Origin: a virus
Taxonomy: Duplodnaviria; Caudoviricetes
Virus record (IMG/VR): IMGVR_UViG_3300033489_000663
Location: 1 to 27,888 of that record
DNA length: 27,888 bases
Reading direction: 5' to 3' (one strand)
Shown: positions 555 to 26,910 of the stretch, in pieces
Layout of the letters: each line of letters begins with the position of its first letter
Position numbering within the stretch: the stretch's first letter is position 1
The notes under the pieces: model-generated
What the model saw: the letters and a program-made list of their open reading frames with translations, nothing else
Told to the model about the DNA's origin: nothing
Database searches by the model: none
Program-made: the position numbers and the translations under genes

Positions 555-1315
555 GCCAGCATATCCTACCAACGCCGGATTACTGCGTAACGACGCAGAC
601 ATTCGAGGAGCACGAGGCGACGGCCAGGCGAAAAGGCTGGTGCACCGGGCCGGGGAACTGCCCTTCGGGGATCTATTATTACGGCGGGCTGGATAAAGCG
701 CCGACCTGGGCGGACATCAACCGGGACATACCAGTTTGCGCTTCGGCGGAATTCAAGAGCATCGAATATGCAGATTTGGACCGGAAGGGGAAAGGACCGG
801 GCGGCGGTTACGGGATCTACGTTAAGGGAATTACGCCGGATGGGGAAGAGGTGATCACGGCGCACCTGGCGGCGACGCCGATGGTAAAGGCGGGAGACAA
901 GAACATTCCAGCAGGGACGCAACTGGGATGGATGGGATCCACAGGGAATTCGAGCAGCAAGCATACCCATTGGGAGATCAGGGTAAATGGGATCCCGGTG
1001 GATCCGGAAAAGAAGCTGGTAACAGTGATCATAGAACCTCCGGTGGAACCGGAAATAGTTGTGACGAGCGATTTTCCGGGAGCAGCGGTAATCGAGATCG
1101 AGGACTGGGAATTCGAGCTAGCTTCGGATTATCTGAACCTGCGGAACGGACCGGGAACGGCAATGAGAGGCTACCAGGTGGTGGGGAAAATCGAGGGGCA
1201 GGGAATGGAAGTTAAGGGAAAGCGGCTGGTGATCTGGGAGGGATGGATAGAGATTGGGGATGGAAAATACTGCGCGTGGGTACACCAGGGAGAGGTGTAC
1301 CTGGTGAGGAAATAG
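551..1315 (+). CDS. Endolysin: M23-family peptidase with C-terminal SH3b-like domain
   Basis: M23 motifs GGYGIYV, AHL, G.MGSTGNSS..HTHWEIR, PVDP; SH3b-like LNLRNGPGT..YQVVG. Confidence 0.85.
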   Translation: MSQHILPTPDYCVTTQTFEEHEATARRKGWCTGPGNCPSGIYYYGGLDKAPTWADINRDIPVCASAEFKSIEYADLDRKGKGPGGGYGIYVKGITPDGEEVITAHLAATPMVKAGDKNIPAGTQLGWMGSTGNSSSKHTHWEIRVNGIPVDPEKKLVTVIIEPPVEPEIVVTSDFPGAAVIEIEDWEFELASDYLNLRNGPGTAMRGYQVVGKIEGQGMEVKGKRLVIWEGWIEIGDGKYCAWVHQGEVYLVRK

Positions 1316-1354
1316 AGACGCAAAATATTGAGACGCAAGATATTGCGTCTCTAC
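1313..1354. repeat. Repeat family A (REP-like palindrome GAGACGCAA-N5-TTGCGTCTCTAC)
   Basis: One partial and one full unit; overlaps the endolysin TAG. Confidence 0.9.
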
Positions 1355-1408
1355 GATAGATGATTGGCGAATGATGAAAGGTAAATGCTGGTTCAGAAAT
1401 GATTTCGG

Positions 1409-1663
1409 ATGGTTGAATATTTTCTTATTATTCTTGGCATTGGTTTGTTGTTCCTGGGAAAGGTCGAGGGAATGGATATACAGAAAGGTCGAATGGACAC
1501 GCTAGTATGCCTGGTGGTTTTATTGATATTTACCGTTAGCCTTTTGTTGGCGGAATTGATCAATTGTATCTATCGCATCTTGAATTCAATACGCAGAATT
1601 TTTACATGGATATGGTCGAAAATGCAGGGTAAACCGGAGATTACCATCGATGACGATCGTTAG
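1409..1663 (+). CDS. Small two-TM membrane protein, AT-rich
   Basis: 84-aa ORF with two hydrophobic stretches filling the gap between endolysin and terminase. Confidence 0.5.
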   Translation: MVEYFLIILGIGLLFLGKVEGMDIQKGRMDTLVCLVVLLIFTVSLLLAELINCIYRILNSIRRIFTWIWSKMQGKPEITIDDDR

Positions 1664-2399
1664 ATGGGACGAGCTGCAATTGAGATTCGATCTGCCGGAT
1701 TTGGACGAGGCTGCGGATGACGCTTTGGAGCGGGCGATATCTCCGGAGGAGGCGCGGCTGATCAGCGAGGCGGCGAGGAGGGCATTAGAAGAGACCCTCA
1801 CCCCGGCCCTCTCCCTGGAAGGGAGAGGGAAGAAACTGGAATGGCTGGCGGACTATCTTTTTTTGCGAGACCAGAACTGGCCATGGCGGGTGGCCTGTTA
1901 CATTGCTTGGGCGAGCTCGCCGAGGCTCAGCCGATGGCCGAAGACGTTGGGAGAACTGGCGACTTCGATATTGGGTTTGAGGAGCCCGCGAGTGATCTAC
2001 AAGTGGAGGATGAAGTATGCCAGCATCGAGACGGTGGTTTCGATGATGCAAGCCAGGCCGCTATGGGAGCACCGGGCGGACGTTTATAAAGCGCTGGTGG
2101 AGATGGCGACGGATCCGAACTACAAGGCGCATAACGACAGGAAATTGTTCTTGGAGATGATCGGGGATTACGTGCCCAGGTCGATGCTGGGAGTGGGGAA
2201 GGCGGGGAAGGGCGGAGATCTGGCGGAGATGAGCGAGGAGGAGCTGAAGCGATGGGCGGGGGAAATGGTTTCGCAAGTCTCCATATCACTTGGAGATGCA
2301 AATGAAAATGTAAATGGAGACGCAAGTGGAGACGCAAAATCTTGCGTCTTTACCGAAGTCTCTACCGAAGAGGAGGGCGAGGGTGCTGGCGACGAGTAG
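1650..2399 (+). CDS. Probable terminase small subunit
   Basis: Overlaps the start of TerL; HTH-like segment LATSILGLRSPRVIYKWR; helical core and acidic low-complexity tail. Confidence 0.65.
   Translation: MTIVRWDELQLRFDLPDLDEAADDALERAISPEEARLISEAARRALEETLTPALSLEGRGKKLEWLADYLFLRDQNWPWRVACYIAWASSPRLSRWPKTLGELATSILGLRSPRVIYKWRMKYASIETVVSMMQARPLWEHRADVYKALVEMATDPNYKAHNDRKLFLEMIGDYVPRSMLGVGKAGKGGDLAEMSEEELKRWAGEMVSQVSISLGDANENVNGDASGDAKSCVFTEVSTEEEGEGAGDE
1794..1830. repeat. Repeat family B (CCCTCACCCC..CCCTCTCCC-N5-GGGAGAGGG), inside the TerS CDS
   Basis: Matches intergenic copies at 4018 and 10752; translated as TLTPALSLEGRG. Confidence 0.85.
2293..2365. repeat. Repeat family A cluster inside the TerS 3' end
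   Basis: GAGATGCAA, GAGACGCAA, GAGACGCAAAATCTTGCGTCTTTAC and GTCTCTAC. Confidence 0.8.
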
Positions 2400-4017
2400 C
2401 AGGGTGATGGTGCAGCAGGAGGAGGCGCGGGCGGAACTGGCCAGGCGAGAACTGGCGCGGCGCCACCTGGTGGATTTTTCGTGCTACGTGGCACCATATT
2501 ATCGACCGGCCAGGCACCACCGGCTGGTGGGAGAATACCTGGAGCAGGTGGAGACGTACGTACGATCCAGGGGCGCGACGGGGATCGGGAGGTTACTGAT
2601 TTTGGAACCGCCGAGACACGGGAAAAGCGAACAGATGAGCAGGCATTTTCCGCCCTGGGTGCTGGGAAGACTGCCGGATACGCACATCATTTTGACGAGC
2701 TACATCTACGACCTGGCGGCGAAGTTCAGCCGGGCGGCAAGGGATGTGGTGCTGTCGACGCCGTTCCGGGCGGTTTTTGGAGAATTGGCGAGCACCGATT
2801 CGCCGGTGGAGATGAGCGAGGACAGTCGAAGCGTGAAAGCCTGGGAACTGGCGGCGCCGCACCGAGGAGGGATGATTGCGACGGGCGTGGGAGGCGGCAT
2901 CACCGGATCAGGAGCGAATTTATTCTTAATCGACGATCCTTTCAAAAACCGGGAGGAGGCGGAGAGCGAGAGCCACCGGGAATCAGTGTGGGAATGGTGG
3001 ACGAGCACGGCTTACACCCGGCTGGAGGATGGGGCGGCGGTGGTGGCAAGCTTGACCAGGTGGCACGGAGACGACTGGGCGGGGAGGCTGCTCAAGGCAA
3101 TGGCGATAGACCCCAAGGCAGATAGGTGGGTGGTTTTGTGTTTACCGGCGCTGGCAGAAAATTGGAACGCGAATGGCGCGAATAAAACGAATGACACGAA
3201 TGAAGGGGAAAATAAAGAAATAAAAGTAAAGGAATTCGATGAGATTCAAAAGGAGAAAATGCTGGAAGGGATTTGGGTAGAAAAAGAGGATGCGCTGGGG
3301 AGGAAGACGGGAGAGGCGCTGTGGCCGGAGAAGTACAGCGAGGAAGATCTGGAGAGGATCAGGATCAATATCGGGGATTACGATTTCGAGGCATTATACC
3401 AACAAAGGCCTTACAGCCGGACGGGGAATCTCTTCCGGAGGGAATGGTTTGCGATCGTGGAAGCGCCGCCGAAGATCGAGGAGATCGTGGCCAGGATGTG
3501 GTTCTGGGATAAGGCGGGCAGCCAGGAGATAAGGTCGTCGACGAACTATGCATGCGGGGGAGTGATGAGCCTGACCAAGGACGAGCTGGTGTACGTGGAG
3601 AACGTGACCAGGAGGCAGTGCACGCCGGGGGAAAGGGACAAGATGATGGTGGAGGCGATGAAGGCGGATTTGGCTACGGGAAGGCCGATCCGTTGCATCT
3701 GGCACCAGCAGGACCCGGGCAGCGCAGGTTTGGATAGCGCGCAAGCGACGAACCGGCTGCTGATCAAGGCCGGTTTTGGGAGGATCAGATTCGAAACGGT
3801 CACGGGAACAAAGGAGGTGCGGGCAGACCCATGGAGCAGCGCTTTGCAAGGCGGGCAGGCAAGGCTGGTGAGAGGTGCGTGGAACCAGCCATTCATCGAG
3901 GAACACATTGGTTTTCCAAAGGCGATGTTCGACGACCAGGTAGACTTTGCGAGCTGGGGATACAGCAAACTGGTCGGGCGGAGGGGAAGGAAAGAGGCGA
4001 GGAGCTACCAGGGGTAA
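2383..4017 (+). CDS. terL: Terminase large subunit
   Basis: Walker A PPRHGKS, Walker B LFLIDDP, TRWH..D motif, nuclease FWD and DDQVD. Start moved to GTG 2383 behind AGGAGG because the ORF-track extension is repeat-derived. Confidence 0.95.
   Translation: MLATSSRVMVQQEEARAELARRELARRHLVDFSCYVAPYYRPARHHRLVGEYLEQVETYVRSRGATGIGRLLILEPPRHGKSEQMSRHFPPWVLGRLPDTHIILTSYIYDLAAKFSRAARDVVLSTPFRAVFGELASTDSPVEMSEDSRSVKAWELAAPHRGGMIATGVGGGITGSGANLFLIDDPFKNREEAESESHRESVWEWWTSTAYTRLEDGAAVVASLTRWHGDDWAGRLLKAMAIDPKADRWVVLCLPALAENWNANGANKTNDTNEGENKEIKVKEFDEIQKEKMLEGIWVEKEDALGRKTGEALWPEKYSEEDLERIRINIGDYDFEALYQQRPYSRTGNLFRREWFAIVEAPPKIEEIVARMWFWDKAGSQEIRSSTNYACGGVMSLTKDELVYVENVTRRQCTPGERDKMMVEAMKADLATGRPIRCIWHQQDPGSAGLDSAQATNRLLIKAGFGRIRFETVTGTKEVRADPWSSALQGGQARLVRGAWNQPFIEEHIGFPKAMFDDQVDFASWGYSKLVGRRGRKEARSYQG
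3166..3201 (+). repeat. Repeat family D (4 x 9-mer ending CGAAT), in-frame inside TerL
   Basis: AACGCGAAT GGCGCGAAT AAAACGAAT GACACGAAT = NANGANKTNDTN. Confidence 0.9.
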
Positions 4018-4058
4018 ACCCTCACCCCAACCCTCTCCCTAAAAGGGAGAGGGTGAGG
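4018..4058. repeat. Repeat family B hairpin
   Basis: Begins directly after the TerL TAA; stem CCCTCTCCC/GGGAGAGGG. Confidence 0.9.
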
Positions 4059-4067: not shown

Positions 4068-5387
4068 ATGGCGAGTGATCTGGAACTGGCATTCAAGGCG
4101 CTGAGCGGGAAGGCTGCTTTATATAAGCGGTACTTCGACTATTACGACGGCAACCAGCCGGTGACGTATAGCACCAACCGGTTAGCGGAGATTTTCCAGG
4201 TAATTGATGCGGTGTTCACGGAGAACTGGTGCGCGGTGGTGATCGACAGCGTGCGAGACCGGATCAACCTGACGGGGATCGAAGTTCCGGACAGCGCCAA
4301 GGATACCTGGGAGCTGCTATGGGATGAATCGCAGATCAAACTGGAGAGCGACGAGGCGCACGAGGCGGCGCTGGTGGCGGGAGAGGCATATATGATCGCC
4401 TGGCCGGACGAGGCAAGCATAGCGCAGGCTTATTACAACGATCCGCGATTGGCGCATATTTTCTACCAGGCAGAAAACCCGCGCAAGAAAAGGTTTGCGG
4501 CGAAATGGTGGCTGGAAGGCGAGAAGGAAACAAGACTGACGCTTTATTATCCAGACCATTTGGAATATTACACGGCGAAGGGAAAAGAGGTTCCCAGCTC
4601 GGCGAGCTCATTCAAATCGATGGGAGAGAATGCAAATAATTCATACGATGAGGTACCGGTTTTTCATTTCCGAGCAGCAAACAGGATCGTGCGAAGCGAT
4701 CTGAAGAATGTGGTGCCCATCCAGAATGGGATCAATAAGCTTCTGGCGGATATGATGGTGGCGGCGGAGTATGGGGCATTCAAACAGCGGTTCGTGATCA
4801 GCAATTCCGATATTCTGGGAAAGCTGAAAAATTCGCCGGGCGAGATCTGGGATCTTCCGGCGGGGGATGGGATGGGACAACAGACGCAGGCGGGACAGTT
4901 CGATGCGACGCCGCTGGAGAACTACCTGAAAGCGATCGATAACCTGAGCATGTCGATAAGCTCGATCACCAGGACGCCGAAACACTATTTCTTTTCGATC
5001 GGAAGCAATCTATCGGGCGAGGCGCTAATTGCGATGGAAAGCCCGCTGAATAAAAAGGCGCAGGACCGGATCGACCGGTTCATACCGGCGTGGAAGGACG
5101 TGACCAGGTTTATGCTGAAGGTGATGGGGAAAAAGGTGACAAACCAGGAGATCAGACCGGTGTTCGACGATCCGGAAAGCGTGCAGCCGTTCACGGAGGC
5201 GCAGGCGGTCCAGATGATGGTGAGCGCAGGGATACCGTTGAGCAGCTCGTGCAGGCGGATGGGCTGGAGCGAGAGGGAGCTGAAGGATCTAACGATGGAT
5301 ATGGAGGAGCAGGCGAAGAAGCAGAAGACGAGCCTGGCGGAGGGGTTGTTGGAGGCGCAGAGGAGGTTCGATCAAGGGAACGTTTAA
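4068..5387 (+). CDS. Portal protein (SPP1 gp6-like)
   Basis: Follows TerL; YYDG.Q, NWCAVVID, VPVFHF, SDL..V..IQ and NLSGEAL motifs; 439 aa. Confidence 0.92.
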   Translation: MASDLELAFKALSGKAALYKRYFDYYDGNQPVTYSTNRLAEIFQVIDAVFTENWCAVVIDSVRDRINLTGIEVPDSAKDTWELLWDESQIKLESDEAHEAALVAGEAYMIAWPDEASIAQAYYNDPRLAHIFYQAENPRKKRFAAKWWLEGEKETRLTLYYPDHLEYYTAKGKEVPSSASSFKSMGENANNSYDEVPVFHFRAANRIVRSDLKNVVPIQNGINKLLADMMVAAEYGAFKQRFVISNSDILGKLKNSPGEIWDLPAGDGMGQQTQAGQFDATPLENYLKAIDNLSMSISSITRTPKHYFFSIGSNLSGEALIAMESPLNKKAQDRIDRFIPAWKDVTRFMLKVMGKKVTNQEIRPVFDDPESVQPFTEAQAVQMMVSAGIPLSSSCRRMGWSERELKDLTMDMEEQAKKQKTSLAEGLLEAQRRFDQGNV

Positions 5388-5415
5388 CGTTTAAACGTTG
5401 AACGTTTGAACGTTT
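5379..5415. repeat. Repeat family C (AACGTT array, 7/8-bp spacing)
   Basis: Five AACGTT at 5379, 5386, 5394, 5401, 5409; contains the portal TAA. Confidence 0.9.
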
Positions 5416-5430
5416 ATTGAAGGAATCATT

Positions 5431-5495
5431 TGGGCGGGACGCCCATGCTGAGGTACTCAGCTTCTGAGAATACTCAGCTTCTGAGAGTACTCGGC
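5431..5495 (+). promoter_or_regulatory. Hairpin cluster (family E) upstream of the scaffold RBS
   Basis: TGGGC-GGGAC-GCCCA followed by three CTGAG-N3/4-CTC(A/G)G hairpins, then TTAAAGGAGAG. Regulatory role is inferred. Confidence 0.55.
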
Positions 5496-5513: not shown

Positions 5514-6131
5514 ATGGCAGACGGAACGGGAAGTTCTAGCGGAGGCGCCGGGGGATCCGGCGGTTCAGATCAAAACAAGGGACAAGATCAGGACAGCGGA
5601 GGCGCCGGGGGATCCGGCGGTTCAGATCAAAACAAGGGACAAGATCAGGCTTTGCAATACGAGGAGTGGCTGAAGGGGCAGCCTGAAGAGGTCAAGACCA
5701 TGCTGGGAGGCTGGGAGAAAGGCTTGAAGACGGCGCTGAAGGACGAGCGGGATGCTCGAGGGGATCTGGAGAAGAAGCTGCGGGATCTGGCCGGGAAGGC
5801 AGAGAAGGGCAGTGAGGCCGAGAAGAAGCTGATCGAGATGGCGGACCAGATGGCAGAGGGGGACCGGCGGGCGACCTTTTACGAGGAGGCGCACAAGGCC
5901 GGTGTATCCAACTTGAAGCTGGCGTACCTGGTTGTAGTGCAGGAAGACCTGTTCGACAAGCGAGGGAATGTGAACATCGATGCTCTGAAGAAAGACTATC
6001 CCGAGCTATTCGATCAGGGAGCACCTAAAACGAAAGGGAACGCCGGTGATGGAACTGAAACACAACAACCGGCGCACGTGGGGATGAATGAGTTCATCCG
6101 GGCGAGCGCGGGTAAACCAATTAATCAATAA
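5514..6131 (+). CDS. Capsid scaffolding protein
   Basis: Between portal and capsid; low-complexity N-terminus, coiled coil, LKKDYPELF, C-terminal MNEFIR; ATG 5514 behind AAGGAG. Confidence 0.85.
   Translation: MADGTGSSSGGAGGSGGSDQNKGQDQDSGGAGGSGGSDQNKGQDQALQYEEWLKGQPEEVKTMLGGWEKGLKTALKDERDARGDLEKKLRDLAGKAEKGSEAEKKLIEMADQMAEGDRRATFYEEAHKAGVSNLKLAYLVVVQEDLFDKRGNVNIDALKKDYPELFDQGAPKTKGNAGDGTETQQPAHVGMNEFIRASAGKPINQ
5538..5649 (+). repeat. 57-bp-period in-frame tandem duplication in scaffold
   Basis: 55 identical bp at 5538-5592 and 5595-5649 (SGGAGGSGGSDQNKGQDQ twice). Confidence 0.95.
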
Positions 6132-6146: not shown

Positions 6147-7115
6147 ATGCCTTACAACAACATGATTTCGAGAGACGACGCGGCTGCATTGATCCCGCAA
6201 GAGGTTAGCAACGAGATCCTTGCGCACGTGCCGCAGAATTCGGCAGTTTTGCAACTGGCAAAGAAACTGCCAAACATGAGCCGGAAGCAGAAGCGGCTAC
6301 CGGTGATGAGCGCGCTGGCGACAGCATACTTCGTCACGGGCGACAATTCGCTGAAGCAGACCACGGAGGTGGATTGGGCGAATAAGTACCTGGATGTGGA
6401 GGAACTGGCTTGTATCGTGCCGATCCCGAAGGCGGTGTTAAACGACTCCGAATTCGACATCTGGGGAGAAGTGAGACCGCAGATCGAGGAGGGTCTGGGA
6501 ATCGCCATCGACAGAGCTGTATTGTATGGGACCAACATACCGGCCACCTGGACGACAGATCTGGGGGCGGCGGGGTTGATTGCCTTGATCACGGCGGCGA
6601 GCCAGATCATCAGTGCAGCGGAATACACCGATCTCTACGAGGCGATCCTGGGCGAGACGGCAGCGGCTGTTTCGGGGATGTTTGGCTTCGTGGAAGATGA
6701 CGGCTTCATGGTGACCGGATCCATTGCTCCGACAGCCATGAAACGTAAGCTGCGCAACGTGCGAGACAGCAATGGGCAACCGATCTTCACCAGATCTATG
6801 CAAGGCACCAACCAGTACGAGCTGGATGGGGCGCCGATCCTATTCCCGATGAATGGAGCAATTTCGGCGACATATTGGCTGATATCGGGGCAGTGGAACC
6901 AGCTGGTTTATTCGATGAGACAGGACATCGAATATACGGTGGGGACAGAGGCGATCATCCAGGATGCAGCGGGTAAGACCATCTATAACCTGTTCCAACA
7001 AGATATGGTGGCGTTACGGGCGGTCATGCGACTGGCGGTGGCGCTGCCCAATCCGATCAACCGGATGCAAGAAACAGAAGCCAACCGGTGCGCGTTTGCA
7101 GCGTTGACGGCGTAG
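6147..7115 (+). CDS. Major capsid protein (HK97 fold)
   Basis: LIPQEVSNEI, AYFV.G, LACIVPI, ID.AVLYG, LR..RDSNGQPIF, NLFQQDMVALRAVMR; RBS GGAGG. Confidence 0.95.
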   Translation: MPYNNMISRDDAAALIPQEVSNEILAHVPQNSAVLQLAKKLPNMSRKQKRLPVMSALATAYFVTGDNSLKQTTEVDWANKYLDVEELACIVPIPKAVLNDSEFDIWGEVRPQIEEGLGIAIDRAVLYGTNIPATWTTDLGAAGLIALITAASQIISAAEYTDLYEAILGETAAAVSGMFGFVEDDGFMVTGSIAPTAMKRKLRNVRDSNGQPIFTRSMQGTNQYELDGAPILFPMNGAISATYWLISGQWNQLVYSMRQDIEYTVGTEAIIQDAAGKTIYNLFQQDMVALRAVMRLAVALPNPINRMQETEANRCAFAALTA

Positions 7116-7117
7116 TT

Positions 7118-7133
7118 GCCGAGATTACTCGGC
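7118..7133 (+). promoter_or_regulatory. Family E hairpin GCCGAG-ATTA-CTCGGC
   Basis: Directly after the capsid stop and before the next RBS. Confidence 0.55.
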
Positions 7134-7152
7134 TTAAAAAAAGAGGTGTGAG

Positions 7153-8091
7153 ATGAGTCTATTTCCGAAAAACCTAAACGAGTTCGTGGCTTCGATGGGA
7201 ATACCGCGGGGGCCGAAATCGAAGGCTTACGTGGTGGATCCGGTGAATGGAAGTGACAGCAATCCGGGGACGAACTGGCTGGCGCCGTTGCTAACCTTGA
7301 CCGAGGCTGAGGATAGATGCGTTGGGGATCGACACGATGCGGTGTTGTTCTTGTCCGGCGATACCGAGGATCATCCGACTGAGGCGATCGTGTGGGATAA
7401 AGACTATACCCACTTGATCGGACTATCGTCTGGGGTCTATGGACTGGGCCAACGCTGCCGGGTGGTAGCGCAGGCTTCCGCGGAGATCTCTCCGGTGATT
7501 TCGTTTACCGGAAACGGGAATATCGTGAAGAACATGCAGTTCTACAACGAGAAAGCTGCGGGGGCGGCAGCCGGATGCGTAATTATCACCGGCATGCGCA
7601 GCTATTTCGAAAACGTGTTCTTTATGGCTCCGATAGCGACCGATGTGGGTTCATACTCGCTGAAACACGCGGGAGCGGAGAACGTTTTCAAGCGCTGCAC
7701 AATCGGCCAGTATACGAACCACCGGTCAGCAGCTTCCCGTGGCCTATGGCTTCACAAGGGCGCCGGAGCATCGGTTTGCCGCTCGAAGTTCGTCAAATGC
7801 GAATTCTTGTCATGGGGCAGCGCGGATCACGTGCACATCCTGATCGACAATGACATTGCAGTCATCCCCTGGATGGTGCAATTCGAAGACTGCTTGTTCG
7901 CCACTGCCACGGGAGGCACGGCGGCTTTGGCGCAAGCAATCGACGATAATTCGACCGCGACCGGCCACCAGGTATTACTGCTGGGCAAGAACTCTTTTGC
8001 CGGATGCAACGTAGTGGCGGATACGCTGACGTACATTTTGACGCAGACGTATTTCCATGGCGGTTTGATGGCGGCTCTGGCGGAGAATTAG
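7153..8091 (+). CDS. Putative head decoration/fibre protein, beta-helix (pectin-lyase-like)
   Basis: YVVDPVNGSDSNPGT...PLLT cap typical of right-handed beta-helix proteins; repeated F..C.F rungs; directly after the capsid gene. Confidence 0.55.
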   Translation: MSLFPKNLNEFVASMGIPRGPKSKAYVVDPVNGSDSNPGTNWLAPLLTLTEAEDRCVGDRHDAVLFLSGDTEDHPTEAIVWDKDYTHLIGLSSGVYGLGQRCRVVAQASAEISPVISFTGNGNIVKNMQFYNEKAAGAAAGCVIITGMRSYFENVFFMAPIATDVGSYSLKHAGAENVFKRCTIGQYTNHRSAASRGLWLHKGAGASVCRSKFVKCEFLSWGSADHVHILIDNDIAVIPWMVQFEDCLFATATGGTAALAQAIDDNSTATGHQVLLLGKNSFAGCNVVADTLTYILTQTYFHGGLMAALAEN

Positions 8092-8118
8092 AGGATTTTA
8101 GATTGATGATTGCAGATC

Positions 8119-8145
8119 AGGGGCGAGTCTAAGACTCGCCCCTAC
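8119..8145. repeat. Repeat family F (AGGGGCGAGTCT-A-AGACTCGCCCCTAC)
   Basis: Perfect 12-bp inverted repeat ending in CTAC. Confidence 0.9.
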
Positions 8146-8580: not shown

Positions 8581-8770
8581 AGAGACGCAAGATTTTGCGA
8601 AGACGCAAATATTGCGAAGACGCAAGCAAGATTTTGCGGAGACGCAAGATTTTGCGTCTCTACGCAGACAGGGGCGGGTCTCGAGGTTGAATGATGGAAA
8701 ATGTCGAATTTTCCAGACCCGCCCCTACGAAATGGCCCGCCGTTCCGGGCGAAGGACGGGGCGGCGGGCC
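8581..8770. repeat. Composite repeat cluster: tandem family A units, family F, GC hairpin
   Basis: A units 8581-8663; F arms 8670-8681 and 8715-8726; GGCCCGCCG/CGGCGGGCC at 8734-8770. Confidence 0.9.
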
Positions 8771-9602: not shown

Positions 9603-9616
9603 AAAGGAGTAAAAAA

Positions 9617-16944: not shown

Positions 16945-16947
16945 AAT

Positions 16948-18534: not shown

Positions 18535-18540
18535 ATAATT

Positions 18541-18575
18541 AACGCGAATGTCACGAATTGGCGAATGGCGCGAAT
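18541..18575 (+). repeat. Repeat family D
   Basis: AACGCGAAT GTCACGAAT TGGCGAAT GGCGCGAAT. Confidence 0.88.
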
Positions 18576-18594
18576 GAATTTTGTAGGATAAAGA

Positions 18595-18951
18595 ATGAAT
18601 TTACCGAGTTATGCAATTGGGACGACGCAGGAGGGGATGAGCTCGCTGGAGGCGCTGGGACTGCCGCTACCGAAGGCGGAGGCGCCGGATTACGCGGTTT
18701 ACGTGGAGAATGGGGAGGGAGATTTGGTAGGACAGGGCTGGATCGTGGCCAGGTGGCGTTTTGCGGAGCTGAGCCTGGCGCAGGCAGCGGCGCTGGAGGC
18801 GTTTGCGGGGGATTGTTATTTCCGGACGCTTAAAGCGGATGGGACGTACGGAGCATATTCAGCGCTGTTGGTGCTGCCAGCGAGGAGGGCGCCGAAGGTG
18901 GACCGGTGGCTGGATTACGCGGCGGAGTTCAGGAAGTGCGTAAGCGTTTAA
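18595..18951 (+). CDS. Putative distal tail protein
   Basis: 118 aa directly after the tape measure; function by synteny only. Confidence 0.6.
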   Translation: MNLPSYAIGTTQEGMSSLEALGLPLPKAEAPDYAVYVENGEGDLVGQGWIVARWRFAELSLAQAAALEAFAGDCYFRTLKADGTYGAYSALLVLPARRAPKVDRWLDYAAEFRKCVSV

Positions 18952-18978
18952 CGTTCAAACGTTGAATATTAGAACGTT
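18943..18978. repeat. Repeat family C
   Basis: AGCGTT, AACGTT x2, AATATT, AACGTT; contains the upstream TAA. Confidence 0.85.
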
Positions 18979-18993
18979 TAATAAAGAGGAATT

Positions 18994-19077: not shown

Positions 19078-19593
19078 TCAATGAGTATTCTTGTGAGGCC
19101 TGCCACCTTTTTTACCATTATTGCGGCTGCTAACCGCCTTGCGCTCCGATTTAATGGATCCAAGTTGAGCTGCGGCGACGGAGGCTGCCACCGCGCCAGG
19201 CTGATCGGGCATGGTGAGGATCCAAGCGCCGTCAGGTTGGCGTTCCAGCCCGCCGACACCATCAAGCCACAAGACATCGTTATCGATTTTCTCGGCACCG
19301 GTGGAGCTGCGACCATTGGAGTAAGCCGCTTGCATCAGACCGCAGATGGTAACAAGCTGGTCGATACTGAGCTGGTCGACGAGGCCAGCTTGGTCGAGCG
19401 CGGAAAGGTGGGGGTTGATTGCGGACGGGACATAAGCTTGCAAGCGGAGCTGATCATATACTTGCTGATTTTTGGACGGCTCGCTAACCACGCCGTATCC
19501 TGGGACAGGATTGTTGGCGCAATCCAGGCCATAATTGACCAGGTTGCAGTAGACACAATCGGTTTCGGGTTGGGTGCAGTACGGGGGTTTCAT
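19078..19593 (-). CDS. Putative DNA-binding protein (N-terminal Cys4; C-terminal NGKKGGRP)
   Basis: CTQPETDCVYCNLVNYGLDC; basic tail KSERKAVSSRNNGKKGGRP; ATGA-coupled to the upstream gene. Confidence 0.7.
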   Translation of the reverse strand: MKPPYCTQPETDCVYCNLVNYGLDCANNPVPGYGVVSEPSKNQQVYDQLRLQAYVPSAINPHLSALDQAGLVDQLSIDQLVTICGLMQAAYSNGRSSTGAEKIDNDVLWLDGVGGLERQPDGAWILTMPDQPGAVAASVAAAQLGSIKSERKAVSSRNNGKKGGRPHKNTH

Positions 19594-19922
19594 GAGGTTT
19601 TTCCCTTTCTGGCTGGCACAGTGAGCAGCACAGTCACGGCTCCGAGATACCCGAGGTCATCTAGCACATCGGGGTTGGTGATCCGATGCCAGACACCTTG
19701 ATAGCGGGCAAACCAGGCGGTGGAGTGGTACGTACCGCCCGAGGTAACGGCCTCGTAGCTCCGATCGTGCAGGATTGCTCTACAGACCTGCCGGTATGTG
19801 CCGACGTGATAGGGTTTGGTCGGGTAAGGTATGCCGACCTCTTTGTAATGGCTGGCGTCGGTATCGTAATTCCAACCCAGCCTCGATCGAAGATTAACAA
19901 TGTGGTGTATAGTGGTAGTCAT
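19590..19922 (-). CDS. Hypothetical protein
   Basis: 110 aa; RBS AAGGAG on the minus strand. Confidence 0.7.
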   Translation of the reverse strand: MTTTIHHIVNLRSRLGWNYDTDASHYKEVGIPYPTKPYHVGTYRQVCRAILHDRSYEAVTSGGTYHSTAWFARYQGVWHRITNPDVLDDLGYLGAVTVLLTVPARKGKTS

Positions 19923-19979
19923 GATATTGTCTCCTTACCGGCCTTTGGCCCGACCGGGGGGGCAAGTTATGAGATTAGA

Positions 19980-20477
19980 TCAATTGGCGGTGCAATCGCC
20001 GTAGCAGTAAGTTCTGCATTTGGGGCAGAGACCATTCTTGATTTCGCGGGCATATTCTTTGGCTTCGGCTTCCAGGGCTTTTTTGGCGGCCTGCTCCTTG
20101 GCAATCTCGGCGGCTTGCACTTCGCTGTATTCGGGGTCGATTCCGACTTCGGCGTCAAGTTCGGCGATCATGGTCATGGCGATGTCGTAAATCCCTTTGC
20201 CAACATAAGCGTTGCCGATACGGGCGTAGGCACCGGCGGGGAGCTTGGTGAATTTACTGGCAGTGTCAAAAAATGCGAAACCGCCTGGCTTTCCGACCGT
20301 GCGGATTCTCTTACCGGTGGTTTTGTGAATGATCACGACTTCGTATTTTTCGTAAGTTTCTTTCCCGATGGGGAGATTGTAACCGTCAAGGTAGGCTGTT
20401 TTTTCGTTAACTTCGCGGGTGAGGCTGATCTGGATGGTGCTGGTGTCGGTTTGGGTAGTGCGGATTGCGGTTGTCAT
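19980..20477 (-). CDS. Hypothetical protein with C-terminal CPKCRTYCYGDC motif
   Basis: RBS AAGGAG; first gene behind the consensus promoter. Confidence 0.8.
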   Translation of the reverse strand: MTTAIRTTQTDTSTIQISLTREVNEKTAYLDGYNLPIGKETYEKYEVVIIHKTTGKRIRTVGKPGGFAFFDTASKFTKLPAGAYARIGNAYVGKGIYDIAMTMIAELDAEVGIDPEYSEVQAAEIAKEQAAKKALEAEAKEYAREIKNGLCPKCRTYCYGDCTAN

Positions 20478-20544: not shown

Positions 20545-22497
20545 GTGGCTGACATAGATACCATCCGGACGGCGGGGAACTGGAGCGACGGGCTGTTGCT
20601 CATCGACGAGCCGACGGTCATCTATACGGCCAATGCGACGGGGGCGGTGGACGAGGAGGATTGGAGCATCGGGTTCGACAGCGGGGATCCGGAACTGGAC
20701 CTGGGAGATTGCCGGTCGGATATGACCTTACTGATCGGGTCGGAGGAGCTGGGCTGCGACAAGGGGATCGCCCGGCTGCGGAAGGCACCGGAAGCGGGGG
20801 TTTTCTACATTGGGATCGACGCGTCGCTGGTGGTGGAGGACGGCGACCACCTGACAGTCGTGGACGATTTCGAGCCGTTCGCCAAGCACCCGCTGGACGA
20901 GCTGCTGGACGTGGACGTGGCGTATGTGGACCAGTTCGAGGACTTCGATCCGATTCCATGGTTCAATGGCAGGTGCGTGGTGATCAAGGCAGGGGAAACG
21001 GCGGTTTTCGATGCGACTTTGGCGTGGGTTCCGGGTTCGACGATCAGCGGATGGACCTGGACATTCACCGGGGCTACATCGAGCACGGGGACGGACACGG
21101 CGACGCCCACGGCGACGTACGACGACAGCGGTCGCTTCCGGGTGGAGCTGGAGATCGAGGCGACGAACGGCAAGAAGATGACCGGCTACGGCTACGTGTT
21201 CGTGCTGGGGGAGAACCTGGCGGCGGAAGCGGACGTGGCCATCAGCGCTCCGGAGTGGGACGCGGATGCGGGGGCGCTGTGCACGGTGGAGATGTTCGAC
21301 AGACCGGCGATCCGGGACGGGGCCAGGGCTATCGTGTTTGCCCGGGACTGGTACGAGGGAACAGAACAGAGCTTCGGTCCGGTTGCAGGTAGGGAGAATA
21401 TCCTGATCGAAGGGAGGATCATCGGGGAGACCATCATCCGGATCCCGGGCTGGGACAAAGTGGAATTCGCCATCGGGGGACCGATTGCGGATTTGGCGGA
21501 GACAGCGGCCATGGTTTCGGGGCTGGTGGACAAAAGCCTGCCAACGGATGATGGGATTACGCTGCCAGCCTGGTCGAAGATGGATGGGCTGACAGTGGCC
21601 AAGGGGCTGCATTACCTGGCGGTTCATCGATCTACGATCGCCAGATGCCTGGATATCCACGTGGAGGATTGGGGCTGGAGCTGCCCCAAGCTGACCGGGA
21701 GCGGGGACAGCCTATACCAGCAACTGGTGAACTACGCGGAGCGGGCGGCGCTGAGCGTGAGGGCGGACCGGCTGGGGAGGATCTTCGTGGAGCGGGACGC
21801 GCAGCTCTACCCAGTGGCGGACCGGGACGACATTCCGGTGATCTTTACGGCGGAGGATGCGGACTGGCAGGACGAACTGACCATCGTGCGAAGGCAGCGA
21901 GGAGAAACGGCCATGGCTGAAGCGGAGGGGGAGATTTTCAGCGGAGGGGCGCGGACAAAGGTGGGGGGCAGATCGCCGGGGCACCAACCGGCCAGGCACG
22001 GAGGAGGAGACGATCTGGACGAGGTGTACGTGGCGACGAAGGCCAACGTGCGATCGCTGGCGGGTTTGCTGGCGGGAAGCAAAAACCAGGAGATCGAGCG
22101 GATCACCTGGCGTACGGCGCACAATAATAGGCTGCTGGACGTGACGCCCAGGATGTACGTGCAGGCGGTGGTAGACGGGGAGACACTGCGGTGCATCCCC
22201 AGAAATATCTCGCCAACGCCGAACGAGGGAACGGGGTTCTGGCACATGGAGATCGAGCTGGAACCGGAGGGGGAAGAATGGCCTGCGGTGGATATTACGT
22301 ACCCGGGTGACGGGGAACCGCCAATACCGCCGCCGCCAGAGCCGCCGCCTACGCCGCCGCCGCAACCGCCGCCGCCGCCGCCGCCGCCGGAATCCAGTGA
22401 AGTCGATGCAGTGGTATCTTGCGCTAACATTCAATCGATAAAATCAACGGCAGACTTAGACGAGGCCAGTCCAACCTGGTCAGCGGAGACGAGTTAA
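20545..22497 (+). CDS. Tail tip/hub protein with PKD domain and poly-proline linker
   Basis: PKD motif WTWTF..A...TPTATY..SG.F.V.L; hub-like DRLGRIFV; Pro-rich segment 22318-22389. Confidence 0.75.
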   Translation: MADIDTIRTAGNWSDGLLLIDEPTVIYTANATGAVDEEDWSIGFDSGDPELDLGDCRSDMTLLIGSEELGCDKGIARLRKAPEAGVFYIGIDASLVVEDGDHLTVVDDFEPFAKHPLDELLDVDVAYVDQFEDFDPIPWFNGRCVVIKAGETAVFDATLAWVPGSTISGWTWTFTGATSSTGTDTATPTATYDDSGRFRVELEIEATNGKKMTGYGYVFVLGENLAAEADVAISAPEWDADAGALCTVEMFDRPAIRDGARAIVFARDWYEGTEQSFGPVAGRENILIEGRIIGETIIRIPGWDKVEFAIGGPIADLAETAAMVSGLVDKSLPTDDGITLPAWSKMDGLTVAKGLHYLAVHRSTIARCLDIHVEDWGWSCPKLTGSGDSLYQQLVNYAERAALSVRADRLGRIFVERDAQLYPVADRDDIPVIFTAEDADWQDELTIVRRQRGETAMAEAEGEIFSGGARTKVGGRSPGHQPARHGGGDDLDEVYVATKANVRSLAGLLAGSKNQEIERITWRTAHNNRLLDVTPRMYVQAVVDGETLRCIPRNISPTPNEGTGFWHMEIELEPEGEEWPAVDITYPGDGEPPIPPPPEPPPTPPPQPPPPPPPPESSEVDAVVSCANIQSIKSTADLDEASPTWSAETS

Positions 22498-23985
22498 ATG
22501 AGCGGTCCAGTATCAGGCGTTAGCGATTCGGATACCGCGTGGTGGAACAGGGACATCATGGCAGCCATCGACGCGGCGGGAGGAAGCGAGGGTGAGAAAG
22601 TCTGGCTCACACAAAATTTGACCACGATAGGAGCAGCCACGTGGACGGACATCACCCCGGTGGACGTGGATACATTCGAGCGGGGCCATCTCTTCTTCGG
22701 GAGAGTTAAATTCGCCCCGACCATCGAGAACGTGATCTACGTGGTGGGTTATGCGGAGGGATACCACATTGCCCTTTTGAGCTGCTGGATATTCAGGAGC
22801 CCAGACTTAGGCGCGACCTGGTCTTACAATCTGGTGAGGGACGACTTCAATGCTCTGGCGGGCGATTATACGGTTACGCACGAAATATCGGACGTGGAGA
22901 TATGGGATGGAGACCCGATTCAGTTCATGCAAACTCACGCCAGAACCGGAGACGAAGAATCGACGTACAATCCTTGGGCGATAGCATATAGAATTGTAAC
23001 CAATGACACCGGTTCGTGGGCCAACCTGGACGGAGATGGCGTTACGATACACGATTTTGACAATAGTTCTCTGCTCGATAATGTTTTATGGGGGACAGGA
23101 AACTGGCTGTTGGGCGGCGGCGGCGCTGCAGGCGAGGCGTACCTGGACGATTACTTCGGCGTCGGTGGGTGGACGGAAACCTCTGGCATAGATCAAAACA
23201 TGCCCAAAGAAGAAGGCAGAATCTATGTGAAACAGACTTTCACTCACAGCTCGAATTCCTATTGGGCGTATGCGGAAAGCTGGGTATTCTGGAACGTACC
23301 CAAGATTGCGATCAGCTACGCTTTCGACATTGCCCGCAACAATACCGTACTTTACATCGGCTTCCTGGACGCCATCTACCAATCTCTGGACGCCGGTTAT
23401 AACTGGCAAGATATCAGCACGGAAGAGACGGAAGGCGAAGGGGCGTACGACATTTGCATCGATCCCTTGATCTACGAAGCGATTTATTACTGGAGCGCCA
23501 GTCTGTCGGACACCCACATTTTCAAAAGCCCGACATTGGGAATAGGATCTCCGGCGCTAGAATCGTCAGGTCTCTGTTTGCGAGTGGGAGGAGTAAAAAC
23601 TGGCGATGCGCTTCTGTCGTCCTGGCCGAGCACGGCGGTCAATCGAATAGCCAGGTCGTGGAATTCGGGGAAAATATGGGGCATCCACCGGGAAAGCAAT
23701 CTCTGGTACATGAGCATGAGAAACCTGGGGATCACGACGGTGCAACTTGGATTTCCAACGGTGCTAGTAGAATCCACTTTTATAAAAGGAACAACCATAC
23801 TGGGGAGGGCGTGGGCGCAAACGATTGCCTTGAAATACTATCATCAAGATAAATTGATCTACGTCGATCGCAAATCGATCTACATTAGCGACGACGCAGG
23901 AGAAACCATGACAGCAAAAAAGGGCGGATGGATCAGCTATAGTTTTGGAGTTGTGGGGCATCGCTTGCCAGAGGCGGAAGCTTGA
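22498..23985 (+). CDS. Putative receptor-binding protein with Asp-box (BNR) repeats
   Basis: RSPDLGATW, QSLDAGYNW, ISDDAGETM. Confidence 0.7.
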   Translation: MSGPVSGVSDSDTAWWNRDIMAAIDAAGGSEGEKVWLTQNLTTIGAATWTDITPVDVDTFERGHLFFGRVKFAPTIENVIYVVGYAEGYHIALLSCWIFRSPDLGATWSYNLVRDDFNALAGDYTVTHEISDVEIWDGDPIQFMQTHARTGDEESTYNPWAIAYRIVTNDTGSWANLDGDGVTIHDFDNSSLLDNVLWGTGNWLLGGGGAAGEAYLDDYFGVGGWTETSGIDQNMPKEEGRIYVKQTFTHSSNSYWAYAESWVFWNVPKIAISYAFDIARNNTVLYIGFLDAIYQSLDAGYNWQDISTEETEGEGAYDICIDPLIYEAIYYWSASLSDTHIFKSPTLGIGSPALESSGLCLRVGGVKTGDALLSSWPSTAVNRIARSWNSGKIWGIHRESNLWYMSMRNLGITTVQLGFPTVLVESTFIKGTTILGRAWAQTIALKYYHQDKLIYVDRKSIYISDDAGETMTAKKGGWISYSFGVVGHRLPEAEA

Positions 23986-25679
23986 GCCAAAAAGGGCAGT
24001 ACGAGATCCGGAAGAGGCTGGCCAAGCTGCTAGGGGCAGGAGAAGAAAAGACATGGGAAGGCTTGGTGGGAGACGCTTCGGGGACGATCAAGGTCGAGGG
24101 GCACGGCGATCTGAGATACGTGCGCCCGGTGGGATGCAATCTGCCGGTGGTGGTGAATAAGGGAGCGGCGCCGGATCTGAAAGGATTGCACGTGAAGGTG
24201 GGGAGGTGGTTCAAGAGGGACCGGCAGCGGATCATGGGCGTGGCGGAGGGAGGAGGAAGCACGATCGGCGTGGAACATCACGCTCCGACGCACCGCTGGC
24301 GAGCGGGCGATTCGGTCTTTATCGAAACCGTTCAGATATTGGATGCGCTGGTTTGGGCGAGCGGGGGGATGGCGATCACCATCAATGCGGGGTGGGTGAT
24401 TGTGAATGGGCAGGCGGTGCATCTGGACGGATCGACGATGGATATTACGGAAAATATTCCGGTGAGCGGGGCGGCGTATTCGCTGGTGAGGGTGGATGCG
24501 GACGGGGTGATCGACGTGCAGGATGGGACGCCGGTGGACAGCTATGCGGATCTGAGCTGGGACGACGTTCCAGTGTTGGAGGCGGGATATGCACTGCTGG
24601 CGATCGTGAGGCTTTACGAAGGGCAGACGGAGCTGAGCACGGATTACGATTGGCCGGACGTGATCGACGCCAGATTCTCGACGATGGGCCTGGGTTCGGT
24701 TACCGGGCATACTCACGTCGAGGCGGATATCACCGATCTGGATCACGATGCGGTGAAACTCCAGGGAAGGATTTTGGCCGATGATGCACCGAGCGTGAAC
24801 GACGTGGTTTATTGGGATGGAAGCGAATGGAAACCAGGACCACAAAGCTCAGGCGCCGGATTGGGCGATCTTTATTCGATTTGCCAGGGAAGATTGACTT
24901 TGGCTTCGGGGATACCGGTTACCGTAGAGGATGTGACCGCAGCAGATACGGTTTATTTCACGCCGGATGGGGGAACTTTGATCGGATTATTCGATGGAGC
25001 GGACTGGAATATCCACGTTCTCACGGAAATTTCATTGGATATCTCTGGCGAGGATGAGGATACGAATCTAGATATATTCATCTATGACGATTCGGGGACA
25101 CTTACTTTGGAAAGAATAGTATGGACAAATAATACGACCCGAGCCACAGCTTTAGCGAAACAAAATGAGGTTTACGTCAAGGATGGAGATGCGACGAGGA
25201 GATATCTGGGAACAATCCGAATAACGGACATTGCGGGTGAATGCGAAGACAGCCTGCTTAAAATGTACGTTTGGAACTATGCTAACCGCACACTGCGGAC
25301 GATGCGGGTGTCAAATACGACGGGTCATACGAATGCAACGGCGATCTGGATATCGTGGAACGCGGACGATGCAGTGAGAGTACAATTCGTGATCGGTCTG
25401 GTGGAGGAGAGGATCAATTTGAGGCTCTGGGGAGATCTGATGCCAGGAACGGACGCCAGGAGAGCATTAGTTTCCGTTGGTTACGATGTGACCAACAATT
25501 ATCTGGGGACGCTTAATAGTATCATCGAGGTAGGATGCGCCCAGAGGATGCGGATTGCAACCAGTATGAGCCATTTGCCGGACATCGGATATCACTACTA
25601 CCAGATCACGGAGAACGCAGCTTCAGCAGCATCGGTGACTTTCAATGCAGCGGAGCTGGAGGCGAACATCTATGGCTAG
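23982..25679 (+). CDS. Tail fibre-like protein
   Basis: HTHVEADITDL, APS.NDVVYWDGSEWKP, QGRLTL.SG.PV; TTG start overlapping the upstream stop. Confidence 0.7.
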   Translation: MSQKGQYEIRKRLAKLLGAGEEKTWEGLVGDASGTIKVEGHGDLRYVRPVGCNLPVVVNKGAAPDLKGLHVKVGRWFKRDRQRIMGVAEGGGSTIGVEHHAPTHRWRAGDSVFIETVQILDALVWASGGMAITINAGWVIVNGQAVHLDGSTMDITENIPVSGAAYSLVRVDADGVIDVQDGTPVDSYADLSWDDVPVLEAGYALLAIVRLYEGQTELSTDYDWPDVIDARFSTMGLGSVTGHTHVEADITDLDHDAVKLQGRILADDAPSVNDVVYWDGSEWKPGPQSSGAGLGDLYSICQGRLTLASGIPVTVEDVTAADTVYFTPDGGTLIGLFDGADWNIHVLTEISLDISGEDEDTNLDIFIYDDSGTLTLERIVWTNNTTRATALAKQNEVYVKDGDATRRYLGTIRITDIAGECEDSLLKMYVWNYANRTLRTMRVSNTTGHTNATAIWISWNADDAVRVQFVIGLVEERINLRLWGDLMPGTDARRALVSVGYDVTNNYLGTLNSIIEVGCAQRMRIATSMSHLPDIGYHYYQITENAASAASVTFNAAELEANIYG

Positions 25680-26757
25680 ATACAGAAATCGACGCCAGAA
25701 CTTTGCTCCTGTCTGGAGATTTTCATTGATATTCGACACTTTGCGCGGCGGGCCATGGATACGATACGAAGGCAATCCGATCATGGAACTTGGAGCTGAA
25801 GGTTCTTGGGAAGATAACGGTATTCGCGACTCGAATCTTATGATCGATCCGGATGGCTATTTGGCCACGGACGATGGCAATTATAGGATGTACTATTCAG
25901 GCTATAAGAATACCGGCGAGACGCATTGGCGACGCGGTATAGGGTTGGCAACCAGCCCGGATGGGATAACTTGGACGAAGTATGGAAGCAATCCAATCCT
26001 GACCAAAGGCGCTGCGGGTTCGTGGGATGAATACGGTGTGCAAGCGGCCAATGTTATTAAGCGTGGTGCAAACGATTACATTATGATCTATTCAGGCGTA
26101 GACGACGATTGGAGCGACGAAGATTCCTGGGGGATCGGCATTGCAACCAGCAACAATGGGATCAACTGGACGAAGTACGCCGGAAACCCGGTGTTAATTG
26201 CAGCAGATTTCATTGGAATAGCGGGAAATAATATACTTACATTTCCATACATGATTCAATTGTCAGATGGTTCGTATGCAATGACTGCAGGAGCTACTTA
26301 TTATACAGACCCGTTATATGGGGATGCGTTCCAGACCTACGCTGCGGTTTCGGAAGATGGACTGACGTGGACACCGCTCAATGGCGGCAATGCTGTCTTC
26401 ACTCCGACTGGGGAAGAGTTCGATTCGAACAATATCGAATACGCACGATTATACGAAATTCAGGAAAATAAGTATCTGATAACCTATCATGGCGATCCAG
26501 CAGGAGTTATGAACAATCGAATGGAGATAGGTCTGGCAACCAGCATCGACCTGATCAACTGGGTACGATACGGTGTAAGGCCTATATTTTCATTCGGCTC
26601 AGGCGACGAATGGGACGATTTCAGCATCGGTAATGGTGTCTTGGCCAAGGATGATTTTGGCACAGACACGCTACGGATGTGGTATGGAGGAGTTTCCGAA
26701 CCGAATATCAGCGAGGGAGAAGGTTTCGGTTATGCAACGAGTGACCAAAGGACGTGA
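25672..26757 (+). CDS. Five-bladed beta-propeller glycoside-hydrolase-like protein
   Basis: Repeats of MYYSG...IGLATS.DGI.W.KY..NPIL...G.WD; ATG 25672 overlaps the upstream gene end. Confidence 0.8.
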   Translation: MARYRNRRQNFAPVWRFSLIFDTLRGGPWIRYEGNPIMELGAEGSWEDNGIRDSNLMIDPDGYLATDDGNYRMYYSGYKNTGETHWRRGIGLATSPDGITWTKYGSNPILTKGAAGSWDEYGVQAANVIKRGANDYIMIYSGVDDDWSDEDSWGIGIATSNNGINWTKYAGNPVLIAADFIGIAGNNILTFPYMIQLSDGSYAMTAGATYYTDPLYGDAFQTYAAVSEDGLTWTPLNGGNAVFTPTGEEFDSNNIEYARLYEIQENKYLITYHGDPAGVMNNRMEIGLATSIDLINWVRYGVRPIFSFGSGDEWDDFSIGNGVLAKDDFGTDTLRMWYGGVSEPNISEGEGFGYATSDQRT

Positions 26758-26804
26758 GACGCAAAATATTACGTCTTTACAGACATAAGATATTACGTCT
26801 CTAT
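26756..26804. repeat. Two degenerate family A units
   Basis: GAGACGCAAAATATTACGTCTTTAC and AGACATAAGATATTACGTCTCTAT; overlaps the upstream TGA. Confidence 0.85.
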
Positions 26805-26868
26805 AAGCGAAGATTGGCCACGGGAGAGGCCAGGCGGTGGAAATTCTCCAGGTCGGATTTTGCGATCT
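26801..26868 (-). pseudogene. Duplicate, synonymously recoded 3' end of the integrase
   Basis: Encodes IAKSDLENFHRLASPVANLRL*, identical to 26911-26978; 8 mismatches in 68 bp, all silent. Confidence 0.9.
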
Positions 26869-26872
26869 TAAT

Positions 26873-26910
26873 AACGTTTGAACGTTAAACGTAAGAACGT
26901 TTAAACGTTT
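26873..26910. repeat. Repeat family C
   Basis: Four AACGTT and one AACGTA directly after the integrase stop. Confidence 0.9.

Follow-up and report, generated by a model that had tools for sequence, protein, structure and literature searches.

Several classes of short repeat are known to occupy the spaces between bacterial genes. Among the repetitive extragenic palindromic sequences (REPs) that accompany REP-associated tyrosine transposases (RAYTs), those of RAYT subclass 2.4 include canonical and double-footed forms and also REPs lying in-frame inside the gene (PMC6006769), while GTAG termini often provide a TAG stop codon (PMC3733652). REPINs have been described as passing by vertical transmission and RAYTs as missing from mobile elements (10.1101/2021.07.10.451892), and REP systems as chromosome-bound. 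For the BoxC/PIT repeat and for the heptamers of Xanthomonas and Beggiatoa there is no agreed function and no agreed mobiliser. The virus contig IMGVR_UViG_3300033489_000663, analysed here over its whole length of 27,888 nucleotides (the window), carries seven unrelated families of short repeat, A to G, at the junctions of its late genes. The locus sets six such families side by side in one niche, each tied to a candidate host protein and with a fast turnover between sister phages. In the explanation that we consider probable, the junction inserts are gene-less single repeat halves (arms), likely derived from the host, likely mobilised in trans by host proteins, and kept where they are harmless.

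On its plus strand this 27.9-kb contig has genes, recognised by Pfam and PHROG matches, for an M23 peptidase, a large terminase, an SPP1-type portal, the major capsid protein, and head morphogenesis, neck, tail tube and tape measure proteins; a tyrosine integrase lies on the minus strand at the right end. The window is that of a temperate tailed phage without its early region. Relatives of its capsid protein in named genomes form nine loci. Because six of these are Chloroflexota records, one of them an Anaerolineae metagenome-assembled genome (MAG) at 50% identity, we infer that the host is one of the Chloroflexota, probably of the Anaerolineae. A scan of viral contigs with the tail tube protein returned no relative.

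The explanation rests on the pairing of repeat families with genes, the absence of those partner genes from phage loci, the polarity and one-sidedness of the arms, their turnover between sisters, and in-frame copies in protein loops. As judged by their chromosomal counterparts, six of the seven families are host elements tied to four kinds of small gene. A and F can be classed as GTAG-type REPs of RAYT genes and B as BoxC/TM_ECO, which flanks DUF559 genes in chromosomes, while the arms of D appear as flanks of GxxExxY genes and those of C and G as flanks of four-helix-bundle genes in chromosomes of the Anaerolineae class. The partner genes were sought in genomes from the class of the Anaerolineae MAG, where they are frequent: PF05635 (four-helix-bundle) is carried by 103 of 151 genomes, PF13366 (GxxExxY) by 98 of 151, PF04480 (DUF559) by 54 of 101, and relatives of one RAYT-like protein by 37 of 61. 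For the first three kinds, the 200-nt flanks of the 30 best-scoring genes were compared with controls. Arrays of period 7 or 8 lay upstream of 25/30 and downstream of 28/30 four-helix-bundle genes (control 2/56); left D arms preceded 24/30 GxxExxY genes and right D arms followed 24/30 (control 0 and 1 of 58); and B stood upstream of 21/30 and downstream of 16/30 DUF559 genes (control 1/47). The D and B patterns occurred in none of the flanks of the wrong genes.

Individual loci agree with these counts. C-type arms bracket four-helix-bundle genes in L299 and L307, a window-type D arm stands upstream of a GxxExxY gene in L237, and A or F hairpins lie around, beside or in-frame inside RAYT-like genes (L258, L265, L349-L378). 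The RAYT-like proteins match NF047646 with E values of 1e-10 to 5e-18, below its cut-off, and a Pfam search of two of them gave no recognition. The GT[AG]G foot of the A and F hairpins of the window is on the minus strand, intact in 5 of 10 full copies and altered by one base in the rest; their placement in subclass 2.4 would rest on the double foot and the in-gene REPs, as in PMC6006769. By eye, the reverse complement of the B copy at 4018-4053 fits the BoxC/TM_ECO consensus CCCTCNCCC-N3-6-GGGNGAGGG-N3-GGGNGAGGG (PMC4666352). The only PDB match of a C-flanked four-helix-bundle protein is XCC0516, and one row in the supplement of PMC4692102 places a GGGAATC repeat 6 nt after bccP, overlapping the XCC0516 start. 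PF04480 and PF13366 are both listed among the PD-(D/E)XK families (PMC3424549). For family E no partner gene was found in the genome and viral-contig searches, and this family is outside the explanation. The preliminary description had proposed a single undescribed system; that reading falls because the six families trace to four unrelated host genes, and the repeat types of A/F, B and the heptamer class are already in print. Two chromosomal observations stand apart. In L299 (G130:C78), near 2024-2338 on the minus strand, the 3' end of the upstream gene recurs in diverged form after the C-armed four-helix-bundle cassette. In G024 and G145 there is an expansion (35 and 45 matches) of the control pattern itself, the letters of family C in reverse order, which constitutes another arm word of the same class.

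In the phage, the partner genes are missing. Hidden Markov models of all four were without a match in the window, across the phage loci and in two relatives, G156 and G158, whose completeness is rated 100%. In chromosomes a PF05635 gene has inverted arms of period 7 or 8 on its two sides; the window has only single arms and no such gene, so that C and G are halves and not cassettes. Likewise, inverted 9-mer arms around a PF13366 gene, or a paired hairpin, are found in chromosomes, whereas all seven D arms of the window (7/7) are unpaired. The REPs of the window are single or head-to-tail, none opposed, and do not form REPINs, which are inverted REP doublets within about 130 bp. With one detector, sites per 10 kb amount to 7.5 in the window and 6.9 in its sister phage L172, against 0.76-0.85 in a sample of 1.2-1.56 Mb from genome G084 and 0.55 in 400 kb of G109, about 10-fold above these chromosome samples, which stand in for a true host not in hand. 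A prophage of G109 itself has 8 sites in 10.6 kb.

The arms of the phages are also co-oriented. Throughout the phage loci the D arms lie on the late strand in 33/33 cases, about two of which resemble chance matches in coding DNA, and 1/33 is paired, compared with 29/47 and 30/36 in chromosome samples. Over 89 phage loci the late-strand orientation holds for B in 13/13 and for REPs in 33/38, and the arrays of 7- and 8-mers show their G-rich strand there in 51/59. Solo arms in G084 are of mixed orientation (heptamer 17:11, D 1:4, REP 4:5, B 2:1), and their polarity had no clear link with the local GC skew, which is noisy when taken per 20 kb. None of the seven full A copies of the window (0/7) keeps a GTAG foot on the coding strand.

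The junction pattern itself is real. The preliminary description had listed 21 pairs of stop codon and repeat, all of which were found where it had put them; they lie in 20 spacers, 26757 and 26911 falling in one and the same. It was also correct that a repeat overlaps the stop at 1315, 5387, 12396, 12879, 18951 and 26757, that the junctions in 9602-9912, the minus cassette and 22497-25679 are free of repeats, and that the window has no transposase, the tyrosine integrase being the sole recombinase match. Its statement that nearly every junction is occupied is right in that repeats are frequent and wrong in degree: on our own gene calls, arms are present in 20 of 35 junctions and in 18 of the 24 between 4017 and 18951. 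Not on its list were the E copies at 5447-5495 and four intragenic copies (B 1794, A 2317-2353, D 3166, A 14394). On the plus strand the motifs of A, D, C, E and B number 10, 7, 8, 5 and 3, against maxima of 3, 0, 0, 0 and 0 in 100 second-order Markov simulations, and those of D, E and B are found on that strand only. Spacers with an arm measure 37-229 nt; of the 15 arm-free spacers 13 measure 20 nt or less, and the other two are at the minus cassette. In 18 of the 20 arm-bearing spacers the first arm base falls within 9 nt of the stop (-9 to +9). The operon and the copies within the window are as follows.

551-26757, plus strand: operon carrying the arms, with the genes for lysis, head and tail in a temperate tailed phage (Pfam and PHROG matches)
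1313-1354, plus strand: family A, one partial and one complete GTAG-type REP with a single foot; the TAG of the M23 peptidase gene comes from it
1794-1829, plus strand: family B (BoxC/TM_ECO type) within the open reading frame (ORF) of a probable small terminase
2317-2353, plus strand: family A within the same probable small terminase ORF
3166-3203, plus strand: family D arm, read in-frame as part of a variable loop in the large terminase, where relatives have D, C or no arm
4018-4058, plus strand: family B following the stop of the large terminase gene; in reverse complement it agrees with the TM_ECO consensus; L172 has G here
5378-5416, plus strand: family C, AACGTT 7-8-mer array that forms the last codons and the stop of the portal gene
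5447-5495, plus strand: three family E hairpins ahead of the ribosome site of a probable scaffold gene
7118-7133, plus strand: family E after the major capsid stop; L172 has A here
8092-8145, plus strand: degenerate heptamer run and a family F REP
8582-8728, plus strand: family A cluster and a long-loop family F
10752-10815, plus strand: family B
11311-11349, plus strand: family D arm; L172 has G here
12395-12495, plus strand: compound spacer, a D arm interrupted by E, then A
12877-12913, plus strand: family D arm overlapping the stop
13796-13875, plus strand: family D arm and family E
14139-14164, plus strand: family A; L172 has E here
14393-14418, plus strand: family A within an 80-aa ORF, at its 3' end; not in L172
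14825-14884, plus strand: family G heptamer arm between two paralogous tail genes; L172 has A here
15281-15316, plus strand: family D arm
15949-16006, plus strand: long-loop family F after the tail tube stop; none in L172
16611-16648, plus strand: family C; L172 has E nested in C here
16946-16978, plus strand: family C ahead of the tape measure gene
18540-18577, plus strand: family D after the tape measure stop
18946-18985, plus strand: family C overlapping the stop; L172 has G and D here
26756-26812, plus strand: degenerate family A copies overlapping the stop of a GH32-like gene
26870-26910, plus strand: family C beside the stop of the integrase gene; judged by eye, the arm is of left type on the plus strand, though the integrase is on the minus strand

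Other features of the window adjoin these copies. The last C array lies between two direct copies of the integrase 3' end (26795-26868 and 26905-26978, 88% identical and encoding the same last 21 residues), an arrangement that resembles an attachment site inside the end of the integrase gene. Three minus-strand ORFs at 19078-20477, without arms and without Pfam or PHROG match, are inserted in the tail region. The start of the probable scaffold gene carries a perfect 55-nt duplication with a spacing of 57 nt (5538-5649), and before the gene lies a small hairpin unrelated to the arms (5431-5444), a candidate site of translational autoregulation with look-alikes at or near the same position in L001, L002, L004, L015, L182, L048 and L056. 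The two tandem paralogous tail genes (14444-15272, phrog_16194) are represented by one gene in the relative L015. A block of three genes at 8808-10745 (CBM96-like, 93 aa and 277 aa) has no arm between its genes and is missing from L172. Elsewhere, L003 has at 1843-2457, between its scaffold and capsid genes, an arm-free minus-strand ORF that is HNH-like by eye.

The sister phage L172, with core proteins 39-98% identical, uses the same palette of A, C, D, E, F and G. Alignment with it bears out that repeats come and go and that families switch at orthologous junctions: among 20 junctions the same family is present in 8, a different family in 6, a repeat in one phage only in 4, and both are empty in 2. 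At the terminase junction and the first tail-gene junction the DNA of the two phages can be aligned as far as the TAA and once more starting at the ATG; everything between, including the ribosome site, differs. At neither of these best-aligned swapped junctions is there the target-site duplication that would mark a MITE, the small type of transposable element with terminal inverted repeats. A 43-nt compound A unit at the peptidase junction of the window recurs with 97.7% identity at the capsid junction of L172, and this recurrence at non-orthologous junctions points to copying from one junction to another. Other relatives have palettes of their own. Among 63 related loci of at least 8 kb, from which near-identical ones were not all removed, 15 reach 2 or more sites per 10 kb, and in 40 no site was detected. 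On the capsid tree, where 10 of 45 rows are arm-rich, 7 changes (at least 5 of them forced) account for the trait, compared with a mean of 9.2 after shuffling and with 19 of 500 shuffles as low; it therefore seems mildly clustered, with several gains or losses. Relative to L172, positions 6147-8091 stand out as a swapped head module, the capsid and the next gene being only 52% and 38% identical between neighbours at 80-98%, and the right edge of this module is an arm-bearing junction. The junctions of L001, L044 and L048 have further hairpin families that are not in the window, one of them ending in CTCGCAATGAC.

Arms are found within genes as well. In one and the same loop of the large terminase the arm is of family D in the window and in L172, of family C in L190 and of D type again, though a different one, in L187; L188 and L192 have no arm there. 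Host genes (L152, L158) likewise contain in-frame C arms. Arms therefore seem to occur wherever they are tolerated.

On this basis it is possible to propose how the pattern might arise. Halves would be acquired from the host, during lysogeny or infection, and mobilised in trans by host proteins, A and F by RAYT, B by DUF559, D by GxxExxY, and C and G by the four-helix-bundle protein. Landing may be fairly free, and selection would then leave the copies that lie between a stop and the next ribosome site or in tolerant loops. Some copies could subsequently spread from junction to junction by recombination among co-resident phages, with their orientation preserved. The one-sided form is likely a survivor effect, since paired hairpins, or halves that can be recognised on the exposed coding strand, would either suffer cutting or interfere with the long late transcript. 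A bolder version can be imagined, in which at least four unrelated host systems of REPtron type (HUH, Vsr-like, PD-(D/E)XK and four-helix-bundle) have temperate phages of Chloroflexota as their niche and as a vehicle. Their halves would have been turned into a strand-locked kit of interchangeable parts for the stop-to-ribosome-site interval, the sole half retained being the one that escapes recognition by the host enzyme on the exposed strand, and would be used as joints for gene exchange or as tuners of translation. This version is speculative and, in our judgement, rather unlikely.

A number of points weigh against mobilisation of host-derived halves in trans. No mobilisation event has been observed, and no gene-bearing cassette stands at a phage junction in the phage loci or in four longer records. 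RAYT cuts single-stranded DNA guided by GTAG, and it is for RAYT only that action in trans is biochemically established (PMC8266576); for the four-helix-bundle family no catalytic role was found. Neither a fixed arm boundary nor a target-site duplication is visible, and as the base preceding the A copies varies, a fixed, cleavage-derived left boundary for A is not supported. In 55 of 62 rows of other viral contigs, where one copy is often counted on both strands, A is double-footed and has its GTAG foot on the coding strand too. The prophage of G109 has paired arms and one solo right arm, so that the retention of solo left arms alone is not universal among phages. As to the comparisons, G084 was picked for its richness in D, the limits of the G109 prophage were drawn by hand, and the loose REP pattern gives matches in 11 of 50 control windows as well. 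The flank patterns were written after the flanks had been viewed, and the detectors were post hoc in the same way; the absence of D and B patterns at wrong genes is for this reason the stronger control. The closest capsid relative in genomes (66% identity) is on a short contig binned as a gammaproteobacterium, and the exact A motif of the window occurs in 2 of the 151 class genomes, the true host not being among those in hand. Finally, the swap of G for A lies between the paralogous tail genes and could be explained by unequal crossing-over.

Family E may be a matter of its own. It could be a separate signal encoded by the phage, an operator or a translational hairpin with an ANUA loop, a proposal that concerns E only, is compatible with host-derived halves for the other families, and is in our view a serious possibility that stays short of probable. 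Copies of E show compensatory and G-U changes on the coding strand and often lie just ahead of the ribosome site. In viral contigs E is a junction repeat in the sister phage only (2/24 stretches), and genomes gave single matches only, in 4/151 and in 3/401, the latter three being one orthologous site; these genome searches did not cover the true host, however, and the early region of the phage is outside the window. The behaviour of E is nevertheless mobile-like, since it nests in C and D arrays and its presence differs between sisters at orthologous junctions.

It is unlikely that the arms have no dedicated mobilisers at all and arise and spread by slippage, template switching and capture of host spacers by a phage recombinase, the partner genes being passengers. 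Such a process would explain directly the solo left arms and the replacement of whole spacers, and it is consistent with the recurrent 43-nt A unit and with the lack of visible insertion scars. What it leaves unexplained is that each arm family is tied to one gene family across genomes and that arms without a ribosome site lie in-frame in terminase loops.

Domestication is, as we see it, quite unlikely. The halves would here be kept as interchangeable modules between stop and ribosome site that tune re-initiation or mRNA stability of the structural genes, or as joints for module exchange. The strict polarity and the 10-fold enrichment are in its favour, as are the replacement of spacers together with their ribosome site and the predicted folding of A, B and E, whose hairpins leave the ribosome site open; in addition, the level of gene divergence of the window from L172 often changes abruptly where a junction bears an arm, for instance around the capsid gene. 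Against it, the 40 loci out of 63 without a detected arm have the common core structural genes all the same, and the families have no common RNA fold, two of the tested D and C spacers folding no better than shuffled sequence. A single domesticated RNA signal, one of the alternatives in the preliminary description, is unlikely because folds differ by family and because so many related loci are without arms. Rfam, at gathering score, gave 0 matches in the window, and an annotated phage collection gave no match for the 12395-12500 spacer.

Least likely among these readings is active targeting of stop codons, also put forward in the preliminary description, in which the elements would recognise the gene end (the stop, a paused ribosome or single-stranded DNA at the gene end) by one rule for all families. 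The closeness of first arm bases to stops, the six stops supplied by arms, the frequent start of chromosomal left arms at the upstream stop and the TAG often supplied by GTAG REPs (PMC3733652) all seem to speak for it. Yet arms make up most of the spacers in which they lie, and the shortness of the arm-free spacers makes the effect inseparable from what compact spacers force. Since the slot between stop and ribosome site is the main tolerated place in a compact operon, proximity to stops does not demonstrate targeting. Four copies of the window lie inside genes, the terminase loops of relatives hold different in-frame arms, host genes hold C arms, and with crude ORF calls only 17 of 47 chromosomal D arms have a same-strand stop within -30 to +40 nt. 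Terminators or promoters can be dismissed, such sites being at chance level, and an assembly artefact was rejected, chimeras being unlikely because Logan contigs of public runs, the best of which (X1) may be the source sample, bridge many junctions with 0-4 differences, and because an identical record, L171, exists.

If host proteins do mobilise these halves, carriage by phages would give the repeats a route between hosts. The locus offers pairs of enzyme and substrate, a prediction of which half is cut and on which strand, and pairs of naturally isogenic junctions for tests of expression. Even if the arms turn out neutral, it is a clean case of selection shaping the sites at which mini-elements survive in a compact operon.

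In comparison with known systems, each family resembles something described and departs from it. A and F share with REP/RAYT (TnpA-REP) systems the GTAG-footed hairpins around or in RAYT-like genes, near 3' ends and able to supply TAG (PMC6006769; PMC3733652), and one of them may already stand in the consensus figure of PMC3733652; in the phage, however, they are dense and gene-less and have the GTAG foot on the template strand only, A being usually double-footed elsewhere. B at 4018 fits, as reverse complement, the printed consensus of the intrastrand triplex repeat BoxC/PIT/TM_ECO, which PMC4666352 presents as without strand bias and without association with phages, plasmids or transposons; here B is phage-borne, of one orientation (13/13), and flanks DUF559 genes in chromosomes. 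C and G recall the heptamer arrays GGGAATC of Xanthomonas and Nostoc (PMC4692102) and TAACTGA of Beggiatoaceae (PMC4679880), which are likewise tandem arrays at junctions, overlap stops, and have their G-rich strand after stops and the inverse before starts. In the main text of those two papers we found no partner gene, mobiliser or phage copies named, whereas C and G pair with four-helix-bundle genes and are unpaired in the phage. The same Pfam family, PF05635, lies inside an inverted-repeat frame in the intervening sequences of 23S rRNA (S23p), but these are in rRNA and are excised by RNase III (PMC4990558), while the phage arms are unpaired, gene-less and in mRNA. For the phage junction pattern, and for the pairing of arms with GxxExxY and DUF559 genes, no description was found in the literature searched, a coverage that leaves out most subscription papers. 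The stoperators or boundary sequences of mycobacteriophages are similar in being many short junction sites oriented with transcription (PMC3029335). There, however, each phage has one 13-bp repressor site with a single asymmetric consensus, while here seven unrelated families, six of them common to host chromosomes, change between sisters, and only E could be operator-like. The component repeats are mostly known already; their pattern in the phage seems to be the new part.

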